Numbered from the whole stretch's first letter, positions 8,001 through 58,216 are shown. The stretch is 63,967 nucleotides of DNA, filler included, from Stramenopiles sp. TOSAG23-2 (GCA_900128395.1; 4 parts of 4 records of this genome joined end to end with filler, not necessarily neighbours in it); one strand, 5' to 3'. Translations and numbers: made by a program. The notes: generated by a model not told the origin, from the sequence alone.

Positions 8001-8317
8001 AAGAAGACGGCTGAAACTCTCGTGCTCTCCTAAATCCTAAAAACAGGCGGGTTCTAATTAGTACATATTTAGTATACTATAAATATTTGATAGGTAGATC
8101 TAGGGAGATAATAAATTCATAAAATCCAAAAATGACCAATGTTAAATTAAAATAAGACGGATGAAACTCTCCTAAAAACAGGCGTGGTCTAATTAGTACA
8201 GATTTAGTATACNNNNNNNNNNNNNNNNNNNNNNNNNNNNNNNNNNNNNNNNNNNNNNNNNNNNNNNNNNNNNNAATTAGTACAGATTTAGAATACCATA
8301 AATATATATTTGATAGG
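8001..8317. repeat. Imperfect direct repeat (about 150-nt period, 3 partial copies) spanning an assembly gap
   Basis: AAGACGG.TGAAACTCTC...TAAAAACAGGCG...CTAATTAGTACA.ATTTAG.ATAC occurs at about 8004 and 8154, and partially at 8275. Confidence 0.75.
8213..8274. other. Scaffold gap (62 N)
   Basis: Run of N without the linker core. Confidence 0.99.
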
Positions 8318-14083: not shown

Positions 14084-15060
14084 TTATAATTTTGTTACAC
14101 CTTCTTTTGTTACTTCATATTTTGCAGTACGCATTGTAACAAATTCTTCTGCAGCAGTTGGGTGTATACCAACAGTTAAATCCAATTGTTTTTTTGTACC
14201 TAGATAATAAGAAAAAGTTAAAATTGATGTTAGTATATGTGCATATGGTATATTGTGTAGAAAAATATATGTAAAAATACACTTACATCCACATTTAATT
14301 GCTGTGGCAAATCCTTGCATAATTTCACCTGCACCATCTCCAACCATATGTAAACCAACAACTCTATCTGTAGCAGTATCGACACAGATCTTCATGTAAT
14401 CTTTTCCACGATCAGCAATTGGAGTTTCAACTTGTCCAACATGATTTTTTAATGGCGTGTATCTTGAAGTATATACAGTCACTTTACCATATTTGTTCAC
14501 AGCTTCTGATTCTGTTAAACCTACTGTACCAACATTTGGATATGAAAAAACAGCTGTAGCGACACTTTCTAAATCTGGCAAACGTGGTTTTTTACCATAA
14601 AATGTATCAGCAAAACAATGGCCTTGTTCCAATGCAACAGGTGTCAATTTCGCAGCTGAGGTACAATCGCCAAGTGCATAAATACTATCACAACTAGTTT
14701 TTCCTTGTTCATCCGTAATAATTTCTCCTGTCTTTTCATCAATTTCTACTCCAGCTTTTTCAAGTCCTAAACCATCTAATTTTGGTTTACGTCCAGTAGC
14801 TGCTAAACATAAATCGACACCATCAAGTAACGCTGCTGTACCATTTGCACTATTTGATCCACTTGGTTGTAAATCAACACTATAATTTTCTTCACCAACT
14901 TTTTTAATTTCATTAATAGATACATTTGTATGTACATGAAATCCTTCTTTCACTAATTCCTCCGTTAAATGACGTCGGATATCTTTGTCAAAACCTCTTA
15001 AAACCTGTACATGATGTATGTGATATAATATAAATATAAGCGTTAGCGATGTTATAATTA

Positions 15061-15091
<31 letters not shown>

Positions 15092-15929
15092 ATGTCTGGT
15101 GGTAGGCAATGTGTGTGTGTGTGTGTGTTTACGCTAACGTCAGTGTGAAAGAAAGTGTTTATATCATAATATGTATTTATCATAAATGAGTACAAGTATA
15201 AAAGTGTCATCATTCGCTAGCTTTATATATGTAGATGTGTGGCATAGTTATAAGATGCAGATATCATATATGTATTAATACATCAGATATACTTACATGA
15301 TCTCTTCTAATGACAATATGTACTTCTGCACCATAGCCTTTAAATATTCCAGCAAATTCAACAGCAATATAACCACCACCCCAAACAACAACTTTTTTTG
15401 GTGCTTTTTTTAAAAAGAAACATTCATTTGATGTGATTAAATGCTCATTTCCACCTTTTGGAATTTTTGGTACATAAGGCCATCCACCAACAGATACTAA
15501 TATTTTTTCCGCCGTTCTTTTTGTTCCATCTGCTAATTGTACAGTATGTGCATCCACAACTTCTGCGCGTTGCTTGATTAAATCTGCACCTGCATTAACT
15601 GCCATGCGTTCATAAATGCCATTTAAACGTGTAATCTCTAAATTCTTGTTTTCAACTAAGGTTGGCCATGTTACAGTTGGTCTGTTTTTAGGATCAACAT
15701 TGTAACCAAAACCAACTTGATCTTTCCAATGGTGACCATGTAAAGAACCATATACAAATAATTTCTTAGGTACACATCCAACGTTTACACATGTACCTCC
15801 AAGGCCAACTGCCAAATCATCCGCAACGGCTACATTTGCACCATACCCACCTGCAATACGAGTAGCGCGTACACCACCACTGCCACATCCAATGACAAAT
15901 AAGTCATGATCATATTTTGTTGTTGCCAT
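14084..15929 (-). CDS. GSR: Glutathione reductase, 3 exons: 15929-15297, 15004-14287, 14199-14084
   Basis: FAD motif GCGSGG, redox GGTCVNVGCVPKK, GGGYIAVEFA, C-terminal GIHPTAAEEFVTMR. GTAAGT..AG introns 15296-15005 (292 nt) and 14286-14200 (87 nt) restore RRDH|VLRGFD and KCGC|TKKQLD. Confidence 0.93.
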
Positions 15930-16406: not shown

Positions 16407-16506
16407 NNNNNNNNNNNNNNNNNNNNNNNNNNNNNNNNNNNNNNNNNNNNTTAATTAATTAANNNNNNNNNNNNNNNNNNNNNNNNNNNNNNNNNNNNNN
16501 NNNNNN
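16407..16506. other. Artificial contig linker N44-TTAATTAATTAA-N44
   Basis: Same 100-nt construct occurs three times; the core gives stops in all six frames. Confidence 0.98.
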
Positions 16507-26204: not shown

Positions 26205-27260
26205 ATGTTTTTTTTACAAAAAATGTTCGCATTGCGCTACGTCGAGGATTTAAGAACATTAGGTTTTTGTCTGATATTTTTTGGCGTTTGTAGTTTACAA
26301 TTTGCATATGATTTTAATAGTAATATGTTGGAGCGATTTGGTATGTTTGTAGTGACTGTGTTCTTTGCCTTTTTAGGTGCAGTGACATGCCATAACGCTA
26401 TCCATGTTCCTATTAGTAGTTCAAAATCAGTGAACAATGCATTTCAAATTGTGATTTCATTGTGGTTTGGTTACACGGCATCTGCATATGTCCCAGGCCA
26501 TAATTTAAGCCATCATAGGAACTTGCAAACACCACGTGATATTATGTCGACATATAAAATGAAATTTAAATCAAATTTTTTAAATGGAGTTTTATTTGCA
26601 CCAACTATCATGTTGGCAACTGGGAAGAACGATGGTGCATATTTCGCAGCACAACGCAAGATGGGCCGGCCTATCTATAAGCAAGCACAAATTGAATTGG
26701 CTTCATGGGTAGTCTTTCAATTAGCACTTGCATCGATCGATCCATATAAATGGATGTTTGTATTTTTCGTTCCACAATTATTTGGTAAATACATGATTAT
26801 TTCATTAAATACCTTGCAACATGATGGATGTGATGAAAATTCTAAATATAATCATTCACGTAATTTTGTGGATCCATGGTTAAATTATTTCTGTTTTAAC
26901 AATGGATACCATGGCATTCATCACATGTACCCAGGGCGCCATTGGGCATTAACGAAAGTTGAGCATGATGAAAAAGTGAAACCAAATATTCATCCAAATT
27001 TGGACCATCCATCTATCTTTGAATATATGTTTGATCGATATATTTACCCTGCTCAACGTACAACTTACGATGGGAAAATTTATAATATTCCAAACAGAGG
27101 GGAAGATGAACCATGGTTTTATGCAACTACGGAAAGTTATTCAGATCGTGCATCGCAAAGTTATACATTAATGCAAGAGACAGGAAGAAATAGTATTAAA
27201 CGAAAAGGCGAGACAAAAGGTAATGAAAACATTGGTGTTGTTCATGTTATTACCAATTAG
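26205..27260 (+). CDS. Membrane di-iron fatty-acid/sphingolipid desaturase (no cytochrome b5 domain)
   Basis: His boxes HNAIH, HNLSHH and NNGYHGIHH plus several TM helices. Confidence 0.9.
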   Translation: MFFLQKMFALRYVEDLRTLGFCLIFFGVCSLQFAYDFNSNMLERFGMFVVTVFFAFLGAVTCHNAIHVPISSSKSVNNAFQIVISLWFGYTASAYVPGHNLSHHRNLQTPRDIMSTYKMKFKSNFLNGVLFAPTIMLATGKNDGAYFAAQRKMGRPIYKQAQIELASWVVFQLALASIDPYKWMFVFFVPQLFGKYMIISLNTLQHDGCDENSKYNHSRNFVDPWLNYFCFNNGYHGIHHMYPGRHWALTKVEHDEKVKPNIHPNLDHPSIFEYMFDRYIYPAQRTTYDGKIYNIPNRGEDEPWFYATTESYSDRASQSYTLMQETGRNSIKRKGETKGNENIGVVHVITN

Positions 27261-28647
27261 TATTGGTTGGATCTGGGGAACAGGATATTGCTTATACTGT
27301 GAATGTTATCGTATGTACTTACCAGTACCTTCTGTTATTGTATATATCATATTTCAATTGTGGATGTGGGATACGGAAGAAGTCAACACAAAAAAATATA
27401 TTGTCTTCCATGACAAAGCTTTAGAAGCAAAATATGGCAACAGACGTTATCCAATGTCAGAGCTTGTGGATGACTTTATTAATTCAAAAGTTAGTTTCAA
27501 TAAGAAAGTGGAGAAAGGCGATTGTTGGAAAATATTGCAATTCCACCGACAACACTTTGTTTCCTACAAAGTTGGATTCAGACAAATCAAATGGTTATTA
27601 TCCCAGTTTATTCCACCATTTTTACAATTTAATGGCCTTGGATATGGAAATAGTAGTGTCAAAGACAAGAAACATACGAAAAAAGAAATTGCTGAACATT
27701 ACGACCGGGGCAATGATTTCTTCAATGCATTCATGGGACCAACGATGGTATACACCAGTGGTGTATTCCATGGGTTGCATCAAACTTTGGAACAAGCACA
27801 ATTTAACAAAATGCAACTTATCTGTGAAAAGTTACAATTAAAAGAAAACGAGACCTTTTTAGACATTGGATGTGGTTGGGGTACATTAACACGCCATGCA
27901 GTGAAAGAATTTGGCGCAGTTGGTACTGGCGTTACTTTAAGTGTTGAAGGTAAAAAATGGTGTGACATGAAAAACGACGAAGAAAATGTGGAGACTGAAA
28001 TTTTATGCCGTGATTACAGAGACATCCCGAAAGATCGTAGATTTAACAAAATTAGTTCCATTGAGATGGCAGAACATGTTGGTTTGGCCAATTTCGTTGA
28101 TCCGTATTTAAGTGGTGTATATCGTTTATTGGAAGATGATGGTATCTTTTTAATGCAAGTTGCTGGACTTCGTCAAGGATCAAACTGGGAAGACGTCGCA
28201 TGGGGATTGTTCATGAGTCGTTACATTTTCCCTGGTGCAGATGCAAGCACACCATTGAATTGGTACATCAGGCAATTGGAAGTTTCAGGATTTGAAGTTC
28301 ATAGTGTTGAAACCATTGGTCGCCATTACTCACATACATTACATAAATGGTATGACAATTGGATGTCCAACAAAAAGAAAATTATGAAGAACCCAAAATA
28401 TGGTGAAGGTTTATTTCGTTTATGGGAAATCTTTTTGGCATGGTCTGTAATCGCCGCTGGACAAGGTAGTGCAACATGTTATCAAATCGCTTGTCACAAA
28501 AACAAATACGATTTTCCACGTGACAGGTGGTGTGAATCTGATACGGTTTCCGACAATGCACCAACTGGCGTAGGTATTAGTAAAAAAAGGTCTAAAACAC
28601 CTGCAAAGAAATCTAAACGTTCTAAAACACCAAAGAAAAAACGTTAA
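27223..28647 (+). CDS. Sphingolipid C9-methyltransferase-like SAM-dependent enzyme (CFA synthase family)
   Basis: HYDRGNDFF..F.GPTMVYTSG, LDIGCGWG, EMAEHVG, QVAGLR...WED..WGLFM..YIFPGADASTPL.W and an N-terminal TM pair, as in fungal C9-methyltransferases. Confidence 0.88.
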   Translation: MKTLVLFMLLPISIGWIWGTGYCLYCECYRMYLPVPSVIVYIIFQLWMWDTEEVNTKKYIVFHDKALEAKYGNRRYPMSELVDDFINSKVSFNKKVEKGDCWKILQFHRQHFVSYKVGFRQIKWLLSQFIPPFLQFNGLGYGNSSVKDKKHTKKEIAEHYDRGNDFFNAFMGPTMVYTSGVFHGLHQTLEQAQFNKMQLICEKLQLKENETFLDIGCGWGTLTRHAVKEFGAVGTGVTLSVEGKKWCDMKNDEENVETEILCRDYRDIPKDRRFNKISSIEMAEHVGLANFVDPYLSGVYRLLEDDGIFLMQVAGLRQGSNWEDVAWGLFMSRYIFPGADASTPLNWYIRQLEVSGFEVHSVETIGRHYSHTLHKWYDNWMSNKKKIMKNPKYGEGLFRLWEIFLAWSVIAAGQGSATCYQIACHKNKYDFPRDRWCESDTVSDNAPTGVGISKKRSKTPAKKSKRSKTPKKKR

Positions 28648-32886: not shown

Positions 32887-32986
32887 NNNNNNNNNNNNNN
32901 NNNNNNNNNNNNNNNNNNNNNNNNNNNNNNTTAATTAATTAANNNNNNNNNNNNNNNNNNNNNNNNNNNNNNNNNNNNNNNNNNNN
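32887..32986. other. Artificial contig linker
   Basis: N44-TTAATTAATTAA-N44. Confidence 0.98.
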
Positions 32987-43014: not shown

Positions 43015-43492
43015 ATTTAAAAAAAAAGTAGTTTGACGTTCGTAATAAAATTATTTATTTTATGCGCTTATATACATAAAGGATATTCTTATCTATCAGC
43101 GTATATGCATATGTATATGTCTATATGAAATAAATAAAATGATGATTTTAGTGTGTTTACTATAATGTCTTCCAGCAGCCTTTTTTTTAAAAATATTCTC
43201 CTGTATAAAATAAATAAAAATGATGATGTGCCAACTGACTGCTGGGCTGGCCAACGATCGCACGATCGGACCTAAAAAAAAAAACACTGTCGTCTCGTCG
43301 TCTCAAAAATCCAATTGTTAATAGTTGTATAATATTCCCTGTACTGTGTTGTGCTATTATTATTATAATACCCACTAATTATTTATTTATTATTTTTTTG
43401 AAAAAAATGAATAGTGCAATAAATTTGAAATAATAAATAATTTCGAAATAATTATTATTATTAGCAGAACACTTATTAGCATATAATATCAG

Positions 43493-49346: not shown

Positions 49347-49446
49347 NNNNNNNNNNNNNNNNNNNNNNNNNNNNNNNNNNNNNNNNNNNNTTAATTAATT
49401 AANNNNNNNNNNNNNNNNNNNNNNNNNNNNNNNNNNNNNNNNNNNN
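49347..49446. other. Artificial contig linker
   Basis: N44-TTAATTAATTAA-N44. Confidence 0.98.
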
Positions 49447-55387: not shown

Positions 55388-55783
55388 TATATATATATAT
55401 ATATAATGGTGTACTACTAAATATGTTTGTTTTTATAAAGAAATATTCACATAAAACAATATTAACATATGTATGATCTTCTTCCCGTTAATAATTATTC
55501 TTTGTTTCTTTTTATTGTTATTTGTTTTGTTAACCATCTTTCTATTCTATCATCATCATATATTATTTTATATATAATTGTAAGTTAAAGTTCTCAACAT
55601 AAATTCAAAAAAAAATCGTTATTTATAATAATATTTTTATTATTAATACAACAAAACTATAAAAACTAATAATAATAATTTTAATAATATCGCATTTGCA
55701 ACAAATATCATACATATACAAATACGAATCGATTACTTATATCGTAGCACATACACTATTGTGCATTGTGATAGAAACAAATT

Positions 55784-56833
55784 ATGTCACGTGTTCATTT
55801 GGTTGGTGCAATAATAGCTGCTGGCGTTGCAGGGTATTACATTGGTAGAAAAATAAATATTGTTAAGCAACGACAGAAAGGGATAATTAATAATAATTCA
55901 AAAGATGATGAAAGTGTTGAGGATACAGACACACACTCCCTTGTCCAATCTTATTACGCAAACGCTGCAAATGGTAGTGGAAGTAGCTGCTGTGGTAGCA
56001 ATAATAGCGCCCCTGTAAACGCAGAAAGATCCGAAAAGATGGGCTACACCACATCAGAACTTGAACTAGTGAAGGAAGCAAATTTAGGTGTAGGCTGTGG
56101 CTCTCCAATAACGTTTGCGAATATACGAAAGAATGAAACAGTAGTTGACTTAGGTAGTGGTTTAGGTATTGATTGTTTACTAGCTGCGGAGCATGTTGGT
56201 CGGGGTGGCAATGTCATTGGTGTAGACATGACAAGGGAAATGATTGATAAAGCGCGCAAGATAATCAAAAAGAAGAAAATCAAAAATATTGAATACAGGC
56301 TTGGTGAAATAGAACATTTGCCTCTTGCCAATAATTCAGTCGATTGTGTTATTTCAAATTGTGTTATTAACTTAAGTCCAGAAAAAGAAAAAGTTTATAA
56401 AGATATACTTCGTGTTTTAAAACCTGGATCTGGTAGAATTGCAATTTCTGATGTTGTAAAATTTTTGCCAGATGATTTGCCACAACACTTAAAAACAGAT
56501 CAAGCGCTTGCATGCTGAGTCACCGGCGCACTTAGTGCGCAAGAAACTAAGACAATGTTAGAAGACATTGGATTTGTGAATATTAACATGGACATTAAGC
56601 GTGAATCCGCGTCGTATATTAAAGATTGGTTACCTGGATCAAATGCTGAAGACTATGTTGTATCAGCAAATATATCTGCTTTTAAACCATTCCCGATAAT
56701 GGAAAGCACATCACAGAAACAACCACGGCAAATTGAACGACTAAATTTCAAAATTCAACCTGTAACTACTAACGCATCATCCAAAGACTCATGCTGTAAG
56801 GTTCAAAAGAATGGAGAGAAAAACAACAAGTGA
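55784..56833 (+). CDS. Arsenite S-adenosylmethionine methyltransferase (ArsM/AS3MT family) with in-frame UGA at 56516-56518, probably selenocysteine
   Basis: SCCGS, NLGVGCGSP, VDLGSGLGID, GEIEHLP, ISNCVINLSPEK, then ALAC-UGA-VTGAL...GF...I.DW.PG..AEDYVVSA.I.A.KP in the same frame (56555-55784 is divisible by 3). Confidence 0.9.
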
Positions 56834-56928
56834 TAAATGATGTAAATATATGATATAATCATATAATCGCATCATCACATCGATGAGAGATGATTATGTG
56901 TCGATGTGTCTCCTATATGATGATGGGC

Positions 56929-56964
<36 letters not shown>

Positions 56965-57688
56965 TATTTGCATTTTTGTATATACTTCACAATTTTTGTT
57001 ATGTGATTGGTGCATATATATTTTGACATGTTGGATCATACATTTTTTTACTGCATGTATATATAAAACACGCTTTTGATAAATGTACACAATGATAGGA
57101 CGTTACTGAAAAATAAACAAAATTAATATTTTTTATGATATATATATGAGAAATTTGAAAGAATAATTATATATATATATACATGTACATGTATATATAT
57201 AAAAATAGAAAATATAACAGTAGCATTTTATTGTCCTTGAGTGAATCCACAATATTGAAAAAGAAAATGAATTATCAATGTATAACTGATACGAAGTATA
57301 TAAGCTTTATACATACACAAGAGAGAGAGAGCTAGAGAGAGATATACAAGTATTGATTTTTTTATGTATAAACACCTCTCGGTAAAAATGGATTTATTTT
57401 GAAATTCTGGGCACAACAATATGCCATTTCAACTACCATTTTTCCATTTTTTATTCCGTATTTCCATTTTTACTAATACAATAAATATGTTATTGATATT
57501 GTATTTTGATATTAAATTTATATTAAAATTCCATAACATTATATTGTAATAAAGATAGAGCACAGGTTTATATAAATAAATAAATAGATACACTCATGTA
57601 GATATAGATATAGAATAATATATAATATATTCTATAGAAGATAAAATAATATTGCTTCAGCAGATTATAATAGTACCGTAGACAAGAG

Positions 57689-58216
57689 ATGAAAATAAGA
57701 ATCATGTTGTTGCGCACCACGTTTTTAATAATAATATTATGTTATTTAAGTAGTGTAAATGCGATGAATCCACAACGATTTGGCCATTGTTCGGCTTTAG
57801 CAGGTGATACACTTTATGTATATGGTGGTTTAAGTTACCAGATTTCAAAGGATGTGCATACTGCAGGTAGTATTATGACTAATTTTCAAAAGTTTGATCT
57901 AAAAACTAAAGTATGGAGTACAGTAGACAAAGCTAGTGATCAAGAGCCCCGTGCTAGAGCATTTCATACATGTCACTATAATGCAAGTGAAATTATTTTA
58001 TTTGGGGGTACTGAACAGGCTGGCAAGTTACAACGAGAAAGCCTTCTGCATTCATGTGGTTTAAATGATGTTTGGTCTTTTAATACAGATACAAAAATTT
58101 GGACAGAATTAAAATCCCATGCAGGTAATTGTGAAAATTCATCTCTACGTGGTGTATCATTGAGTATTGGAAGTATTCTTGGGATAATAAGTTTTGTTTG
58201 TATGTTGATGATTTAA
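57689..58216 (+). CDS. Short Kelch-repeat protein with signal peptide and C-terminal hydrophobic anchor
   Basis: RFGHCS...LYVYGG...FD....W; PRARAFHT...ILFGG...LNDVWSF...W. Confidence 0.8.
   Translation: MKIRIMLLRTTFLIIILCYLSSVNAMNPQRFGHCSALAGDTLYVYGGLSYQISKDVHTAGSIMTNFQKFDLKTKVWSTVDKASDQEPRARAFHTCHYNASEIILFGGTEQAGKLQRESLLHSCGLNDVWSFNTDTKIWTELKSHAGNCENSSLRGVSLSIGSILGIISFVCMLMI

Follow-up and report, generated by a model that had tools for sequence, protein, structure and literature searches.

The window, by which we mean the whole 63,967-nt stretch of DNA from Stramenopiles sp. TOSAG23-2 (GCA_900128395.1) that was analysed, carries on its + strand a gene for an arsenite methyltransferase (ArsM) that is interrupted by an in-frame TGA at codon 245, and we conclude that this UGA is very likely decoded as selenocysteine (Sec). 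The product would then be a Sec-containing ArsM, orthologous to a family that has been on record since 2007 for bacteria, prasinophytes and diatoms, and we infer Sec to be the residue inserted.

The gene starts with ATG at position 55784, and its first open reading frame (ORF) ends at TGA 56516-56518, directly after TGC 56513-56515 (Cys244). Past this TGA the codons GTC ACC GGC GCA CTT (V-T-G-A-L) continue the same frame, which stays open for 104 codons up to a second TGA at 56831-56833 (codon 350), followed at once by TAA (56834-56836). An earlier reading of this DNA, made from the sequence alone and called here the sequence-only reading, had described both the stop at 56516-56518 and the 104 open codons beyond it, and the sequence bears this out. 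The end that it gave, 56836, takes in the tandem stop TGA-TAA (56831-56836, +), and the coding sequence proper runs from 55784 to 56833 (+), with 349 sense codons if codon 245 is counted as Sec. Assuming 0.07-0.08 stops per codon at the base composition of the window, the chance of 104 open codons is, as a rough estimate, about 2 in 10,000.

The predicted product is an ArsM/AS3MT-type S-adenosylmethionine (SAM)-dependent arsenite methyltransferase. When compared with Pfam, the read-through product matched Methyltransf_31 (E = 2.7e-32) as well as Methyltransf_25/11, and the SAM-binding Rossmann-type motif VVDLGSGLGID is legible in the translation. The best matches in the PDB, obtained with phmmer, were the arsenite methyltransferases 8xt7, 5evj and 4kw7/4fr0 (1.8e-21 to 1.8e-18). 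The NCBIfam model NF008823 (PRK11873, ‘arsenite methyltransferase’), with a curated cut-off of 263 bits for the whole protein, scored the read-through protein at 275.4 bits over profile positions 4-268 of 272, and the 244-residue ORF ending at the internal TGA at 236.5 bits, below the cut-off.

These comparisons also place the UGA at a catalytic position. In the phmmer alignments, the segment ‘alaCCvtGAL’ (U shown as C) pairs with ‘wgeCLgGAL’ of 8xt7 and with the corresponding segments of 5evj and 4kw7/4fr0, so that the TGA falls on a conserved Cys; in an alignment of 13 sequences (the gene and 12 homologues) this column is an invariant Cys, which we take to be C206 of hAS3MT and C224 of CmArsM. 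The codons TGC-TGA for Cys244 and the putative Sec245 (56513-56518, +) therefore put TGA at the invariant As(III)-binding Cys column, in a motif U-V-T-G that corresponds to UxxG. The remaining sites are Cys69-Cys70 (SSCCGS; 55988-55993, +), the first conserved Cys site, where C70 is invariant in the 13 sequences, Cys105 (GCGSP; 56096-56098, +) and Cys193 (SNCVINL; 56360-56362, +), both invariant in the alignments. Thus, the sequence-only reading was right that three conserved Cys (SCC, GCG and SNC, here C69/C70, C105 and C193) are present and that the fourth coincides with the UGA. Downstream of the UGA, residues 246-302 align throughout with the 12 homologues (ES..FIRDW.PGS..EDYV.SA.I.A.KP), and these 57 residues match bacterial ArsM at the level of the family.

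Elsewhere in the window, TGA is an ordinary stop. The 12 confident ORFs of the window (8472 codons) contain 97 TGT, 18 TGC and 95 TGG codons and 0 in-frame TGA, and TGA ends 9 of the 32 long ORFs, among them the Tex-like, gephyrin-like and EAP30 genes. In the Tex-like and EAP30 genes, the Pfam domains stop at the TGA or within 25 residues of it, and the read-through tails of both, as well as that of the gephyrin-like gene, look non-coding.

The internal TGA is real and transcribed. Both it and the TGA-TAA end are kept in the metagenome contigs L001 (another strain, with 97% amino acid identity) and L022, which are the only close relatives among the metagenome loci, L003 and the rest being bacterial Cys forms. 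The stretch was also compared with contigs of four runs (X16, X19, X15 and X4). A polyA-metatranscriptome contig of X16 covers 55744-56923 without a break and with 11 differences, zero of them at the TGA, and an RNA contig of X19, from another study, is identical over 56453-56600, TGA included; X15 and X4 yielded fragments only, and gaps in their cover are left uninterpreted. The sequence-only reading had proposed that the TGA be confirmed in further reads and in RNA, and L001, L022, X16 and X19 all carry it. The truncated product itself has a 90%-identity cluster of 36 members on 16 contigs.

The stop is shared with relatives well beyond these strains. When the truncated ORF was used as the query against 1.84 billion cluster representatives (50% identity), 43 of the best 150 representatives ended exactly at query residue 244, nearly all of them with ‘...ALAC’, while 98 ran on and 9 were shorter. 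Among the 119 other proteins listed at the level of 90%-identity clusters, 79 are of full length with Cys in the Sec/Cys column, 39 break off just short of this column, of which 32 have ‘ALAC’ at the end, and 1 ends in ‘WCG’. The ‘AC’ before the column is invariant in 22 of 22 aligned truncated relatives. The truncated relatives show 41-62% identity, belong to many separate clusters and include several diatom genera; those with names are from Thalassiosira exigua, Cyclostephanos tholiformis, Thalassiosira sp., Detonula, Amphora coffeaeformis and MMETSP transcripts. A language-model atlas placed the ORF among 190-240-residue ‘arsenite methyltransferase’ clusters that have Haptophyta and Chlorophyta members. 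Because the nearest relatives, diatoms included, end at the identical codon, the in-frame stop is evidently ancestral and not a recent nonsense mutation, and a stop shared across relatives of 41-62% identity has the appearance that a Sec codon takes on in protein databases. The pairing of Cys and UGA among homologues that the sequence-only reading had suggested looking for is visible in the same counts (43 of 150 best representatives and 39 of 119 listed clusters ending before the column, 79 of 119 with Cys), if the shared stop is taken to be TGA.

Bacterial genes were surveyed at the same column. Of 301 genomes drawn from one bacterial class, 300 were scored; TGA stands at the column in 6 of their 23 ArsM loci, each of the 6 with a hairpin further downstream. 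Among the best 80 prokaryotic loci from genome contigs, 76 have TGC or TGT and none has TGA, the motif being unfound in 4. Viral contigs gave 4 substantial matches among 6 loci, all of them Cys forms. The Clostridia-class loci with TGA at the column and downstream hairpins are L118-L120, L124, L131 and L134. L118-L120 have a Cys at position -2 (‘YCG-U’), L124, L131 and L134 (‘YG[TS]-U’) lack it, and in the eukaryotic clade a Cys stands at -1 (‘AC-U’). Some of the Sec forms may therefore be accompanied by a resolving Cys close by.

Proteins of this kind have been described before. The part of Lobanov et al. (2007, PMC2375036) available to us reports that O. tauri, O. lucimarinus and T. pseudonana have a methyltransferase selenoprotein homologous to a bacterial one, and the same family appears as MT in the available part of ‘The algal selenoproteomes’ (PMC7539508). 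In a 2026 review (PMC13188914), also available in part, the entry ‘Arsenite methyltransferase, NF008823, UxxG’ is one of the prokaryotic selenoproteins with experimental verification, for which the review cites Fomenko et al. 2007. The sequence-only reading had regarded Sec forms of the family as known only sporadically, a view that has to be given up, since these excerpts show them catalogued in bacteria (PMC13188914) and in Ostreococcus and Thalassiosira (PMC2375036).

The window gene resembles the eukaryotic MT of Ostreococcus and Thalassiosira, as far as the available excerpts describe it, in encoding a SAM-dependent methyltransferase homologous to a bacterial selenoprotein and in belonging to marine protists, stramenopiles included, and its nearest named relatives are diatom proteins ending at the same codon. 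It differs in that its host is not a diatom, that it has a short hydrophobic N-terminal anchor where several relatives have a thioredoxin-like extension, and that the published SECIS (Sec insertion sequence) elements were found by a SECIS search whereas a canonical SECIS was not found here; the published sequences were compared by description only. With the prokaryotic Sec-ArsM (NF008823, UxxG) it shares the family model, which it passes, the Sec column and the V-x-G-A that follows. The bacterial proteins, however, read ‘YCG-U’ or ‘YG[TS]-U’ and have a SECIS loop with a G ∼21-24 nt from the U of the UGA, whereas the window gene reads ‘LAC-U’ and has a loop UUA at +17-19. To the Cys-type ArsM/AS3MT enzymes (8xt7, 5evj and 4kw7/4fr0) the likeness is a fold-level match over residues 51-268 with all conserved Cys sites; in contrast to these, the window protein would have Sec for the last As-binding Cys, and it is of the short bacterial type with an N-terminal anchor and a 48-residue C-terminal tail added.

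The N-terminal hydrophobic segment VHLVGAIIAAGVAGYYI (55796-55846, +), read from the translation without a predictor, is a probable membrane anchor or signal, and the N-termini of relatives P0246, P0247 and P0258 are likewise hydrophobic in the alignment. In other truncated Sec-type relatives (P0395, P0408 and P0442), PF00085, a thioredoxin-like domain, lies N-terminal to the ArsM domain, and the alignment shows thioredoxin-like N-termini also in P0248, P0254, P0260, P0261, P0263, P0276, P0278, P0289 and P0291. This arrangement suggests a thioredoxin-ArsM fusion that would supply reductant in cis in those relatives; the window gene has the hydrophobic anchor in place of the thioredoxin-like domain.

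Just past the UGA lies a GC-rich hairpin, GCGCAC-UUA-GUGCGC (56526-56540, +), which starts 8 nt beyond the UGA, leaving a spacer of 7-8 nt, and is a candidate recoding stimulator resembling a Sec redefinition element (SRE). Among perfect 6-bp hairpins with a loop of 3-8, it is the sole one in the 63,967 nt to have five or more G-C pairs; its position matches a local maximum of GC in the gene, and it is identical in L001, a strain ∼97% identical overall. The seven codons that follow the UGA include five rare ones (GTC 0.11, ACC 0.09, GGC 0.11, CTT 0.10 and GCG 0.11 of their families). A fold test of 51 nt at the hairpin was unremarkable (z = -1.44, with 15 of 200 shuffles as stable). In bacteria, the SECIS is a hairpin past the UGA with a G-containing apical loop at a set spacing, and eukaryotes are unable to use it. 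In bacterial Sec-ArsM genes, the SECIS covers the G-A-x-x-x codons, and the hairpin of the window gene lies over this same stretch, but it departs from the bacterial type, with its loop UUA at +17-19 versus AGUU or GGA at ∼+21-24 in L118-L120, L124 and L134. SREs, according to the available part of PMC8704476, are stem-loops that adjoin UGA-Sec codons and damp termination, as in the SELENON and SELENOT mRNAs. The likeness to these lies in a stem-loop a few nt downstream of the UGA and within the coding sequence, which is what is found at 56526-56540; the differences are that the stem here has just 6 bp and that its conservation is seen in near-identical strains only. We suggest that the hairpin aids recoding in the manner of an SRE. 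That a eukaryotic mRNA without a canonical SECIS recodes UGA-245 mainly by means of this hairpin, possibly a retained bacterial-type element co-opted as a redefinition element, together with a degenerate AUGA-rich kink-turn (K-turn) region, appears unlikely.

The 3′ untranslated region (UTR) was searched for a SECIS, and one weak, type-II-like candidate was obtained (56850-56921, +). It came from a relaxed nested scan with the canonical motif order and consists of AUGA at 56850-56853, 11 nt, an unpaired AA at 56865-56866, a long upper stem, and UGAU at 56918-56921. The inner fold of this candidate has an energy of -12.6 kcal/mol, which 3 of 500 shuffles reach; when the 153 nested candidates from the two strands of the window are ranked, it shares ranks 6-7 at this value. 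In the other strain, an A56850>G change gives GUGA in the candidate, and the available part of Lobanov et al. (2007, PMC2375036) describes the GUGA variant as the rule in Ostreococcus SECIS elements, in which the mini-stems are long too.

Further structures were considered as SECIS elements and set aside. The long GUGA...UGAU hairpin at 57003-57095 lacks an unpaired AA, folds with a z-score of +0.33, and carries two indels in L001. An element within the coding region (56601-56652) scores a weak -4.3 and loses base pairs to the substitutions of the other strain. The top match of the relaxed scan, at 56830 (-18.1), is an artefact of two local hairpins within a forced closing pair, and a GC-rich SECIS-like structure at 43220-43270 lies between divergent genes, with no + strand ORF upstream. 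As a separate observation, the first 90 nt of the 3′ UTR (56837-56926) contain AUGA six times versus 0.63 expected from composition, including a box-C-like AUGAUGA, and weak matches to C/D-box snoRNAs there, mostly on the opposite strand, are all far below the gathering score.

Several results weigh against decoding of the UGA as Sec, and residual doubt persists because no convincing SECIS was detected. At the gathering threshold, the Rfam SECIS families gave no match in the whole window, and at E<=10 none on 56400-57800, 56960-57140, 56500-56935 or 56838-56932, in searches run without a eukaryotic SECIS as positive control; the search on 95 nt reported matches down to ∼10 bits, none of them SECIS. 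Strict pattern-and-fold scans of the 3′ UTR found no SECIS, and by a helix-energy score the best 3′ UTR candidate (-8.8) falls within the background (median -5.8, best -15.2). In the control of the scan, 35 of 40 planted idealised elements were recovered, and a candidate also arose in 13 of 40 random AT-rich 300-nt sequences. The candidate at 56850-56921 has a 2x5 internal loop in helix II and competes with a three-hairpin fold of -25.5 versus its own -12.6, generic fold z-scores are unremarkable (-1.44, -1.63 and +0.33), and the three strains are too alike for covariation. These strains differ by ∼1-3%, so that the open downstream frame alone is no proof of selection, and between the other strain and the window there are 4 replacements (R273H, A276R, I305L and E307K) and 3 silent changes downstream of the UGA compared with 0 replacements and 2 silent changes upstream; two of the replacements move toward the family consensus. 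Finally, the truncated relatives are known from proteins only, and both the identity of their stop as TGA and the continuing frame behind it are deduced. On a smaller scale, four of the strain substitutions lie within 10 nt (56601-56610: R273H, a silent change at S275, and A276R by two changes), and at residue 276 the other strain has the family-consensus basic residue where the window strain has Ala.

Other explanations of the in-frame TGA were weighed against this evidence. A reassignment of TGA to a standard amino acid, or an assembly or sequencing error, has nothing in its favor but the in-frame TGA itself, and both a code change and an error are excluded by the lack of any in-frame TGA in 8472 codons versus 115 TGT/TGC and 95 TGG, by the 9 of 32 long ORFs that end in TGA, by the presence of the TGA in two more contigs and in two RNA runs from other studies, and by the 16 contigs that encode the truncated product. 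If the UGA simply terminated translation, the gene would yield a methyltransferase cut to 244 residues and probably inactive, and the frame beyond the UGA would be the undecayed remnant of a young pseudogene or nonsense allele. The similarity of the strains, just ∼1-3% apart, in which an open frame by itself proves no selection, would be consistent with this, as would the commoner replacements downstream than upstream of the UGA and the lack of an Rfam-endorsed SECIS. However, a recent lesion cannot explain why relatives of 41-62% identity in many separate clusters, several diatom genera among them, stop at the identical codon; moreover, 57 downstream residues still align to bacterial ArsM, NF008823 is passed by the read-through protein only, a rare-codon GC hairpin stands right past the UGA, and polyA RNA from two studies contains the mRNA, all of which makes termination highly unlikely.

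Programmed read-through without Sec, in which the hairpin lets a near-cognate tRNA (Trp, Cys or Arg) decode the UGA and some full-length enzyme is made without a SECIS, would account for a unique GC hairpin of rare codons at a spacing typical of recoding stimulators and for the failure to detect a canonical SECIS in Rfam searches of the window and the 3′ UTR, and RNA structures beside stop codons are described as stimulating read-through in the available part of PMC8704476. We nevertheless consider it quite unlikely, since the column is Sec in documented relatives, the stop is kept across a clade that includes diatoms reported in the excerpted source to use Sec (PMC2375036), a weak SECIS candidate exists, and the UGA has been retained over the long term even though one A>T or A>C would give Cys. 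Such retention argues for Sec, because a single change of this kind yields Cys permanently. The proposal of the sequence-only reading, decoding of the UGA as Sec, is thus the one that we favor with good confidence, on the grounds that TGA is otherwise a stop, that this TGA is transcribed, that the stop is kept in relatives, and that the position is a published Sec position.

In the mechanism that we propose, UGA codon 245 would be read as Sec to give a full-length 349-residue enzyme, in which Sec245 would replace the Cys that binds As(III) together with Cys193 (and Cys105) and, adjoining Cys244, would form a Cys-Sec pair. The GC hairpin 8 nt past the UGA would assist recoding, the degenerate type-II-like element at 56850-56921 would recruit the Sec machinery, and UGA-350 with the UAA would end translation. 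Sec insertion requires ∼50-100 nt or more between the UGA and the SECIS. Because the second UGA, at codon 350, lies 17 nt before the core of the candidate SECIS, less than this spacing, and is followed by TAA, we infer that it is probably the true stop, backed up by the UAA; a second, C-terminal Sec at this codon finds no support here.

The transcript can be delimited in part. The 5′ untranslated leader has a minimum extent of 55744-55783 (+), since the X16 contig (record 9) begins at 55744, right behind adapter letters. In the 3′ UTR, a (TA)n microsatellite (56930-56963, +) differs in length among strains, and AATAAA at 57112-57117 (+) is a probable poly(A) signal. The X19 RNA contig extends to 57098, and the three strains are near-identical to ∼57125 and variable past that point. 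Taken together, the RNA contig, the AATAAA and the fall in strain conservation indicate that the 3′ UTR, about 56837-57130, probably ends near 57130.

The window is eukaryotic and compact, with 30-37% GC and short introns (e.g., in the glutathione-reductase-like gene at 14084-15929), and its other genes include ATAD3, a CAMTA-like CG-1 protein, EAP30, a gephyrin-like MoeA/MoCF gene and a Tex/SRBD1-like protein; no tRNA and no Rfam family at gathering score were found in it. The GC content at third codon positions of the ArsM gene (0.27) lies inside the host range of 0.19-0.33, and it is therefore a resident gene. The neighboring ATAD3 is closest to oomycete proteins among named matches (54%), with unnamed relatives at 83% and 65%, and the stretch is found in marine metagenomes and polyA metatranscriptomes; we take the host to be a marine, stramenopile-like protist, uncultured and outside the diatoms. 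A scan of the window for TGA-joined frames that would reveal other selenoprotein genes gave coding-like halves in the ArsM gene alone, and the glutathione-reductase-like gene ends in ‘...VTKL*’, the GCUG tail being absent.

Three other features of the window were recorded. At 26205-28647 (+), ORFs for a fatty-acid desaturase (26205-27260) and for a cyclopropane/CMAS-type methyltransferase (27223-28647) overlap in different frames, and a desaturase-methyltransferase fusion may be encoded here by a single gene that contains a short intron or a frameshift. A GC-rich structured element, ATGATGATGTGCCAACTGACTGCTGGGCTGGCCAACGATCGCACGATCGGACC (43208-43275, +), lies in an AT-rich divergent intergenic region, and the repeated motif AAATAAATAAAATGATGAT occurs at 43128 and 43208, ahead of the 43208-43275 element. 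Masked or unassembled sequence appears as runs of N at 8213-8274, 16407-16506, 32887-32986 and 49347-49446; one run has 62 N, and the other six, of 44 each, are arranged in pairs with 12 nt between the members. The ORF ending at 32942 is broken by one such run.

The novelty of these results is modest and lies in the lineage of the host, an ‘ACU’ site present across the clade, the large number of truncated entries in databases and the puzzle of the hairpin and the SECIS. Sec-ArsM would be extended to a non-diatom, AT-rich marine stramenopile-like protist, and the post-UGA hairpin together with the missing canonical SECIS provides leads for research on recoding. In the public protein collection, the gene and dozens of clusters of relatives, annotated diatom proteins included, are present only in a form cut at the Sec codon, and because these database products end there, such genes would be missed or mis-sized when arsenic-methylation capacity or selenoproteomes are counted in marine plankton. 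The Cys-Sec ‘ACU’ site found across the clade raises the possibility of a selenenylsulfide at the arsenic-binding position. Whether selenium supply is coupled to arsenic detoxification in ocean protists thus becomes a question that may be tested in cultured diatoms that carry the orthologue.

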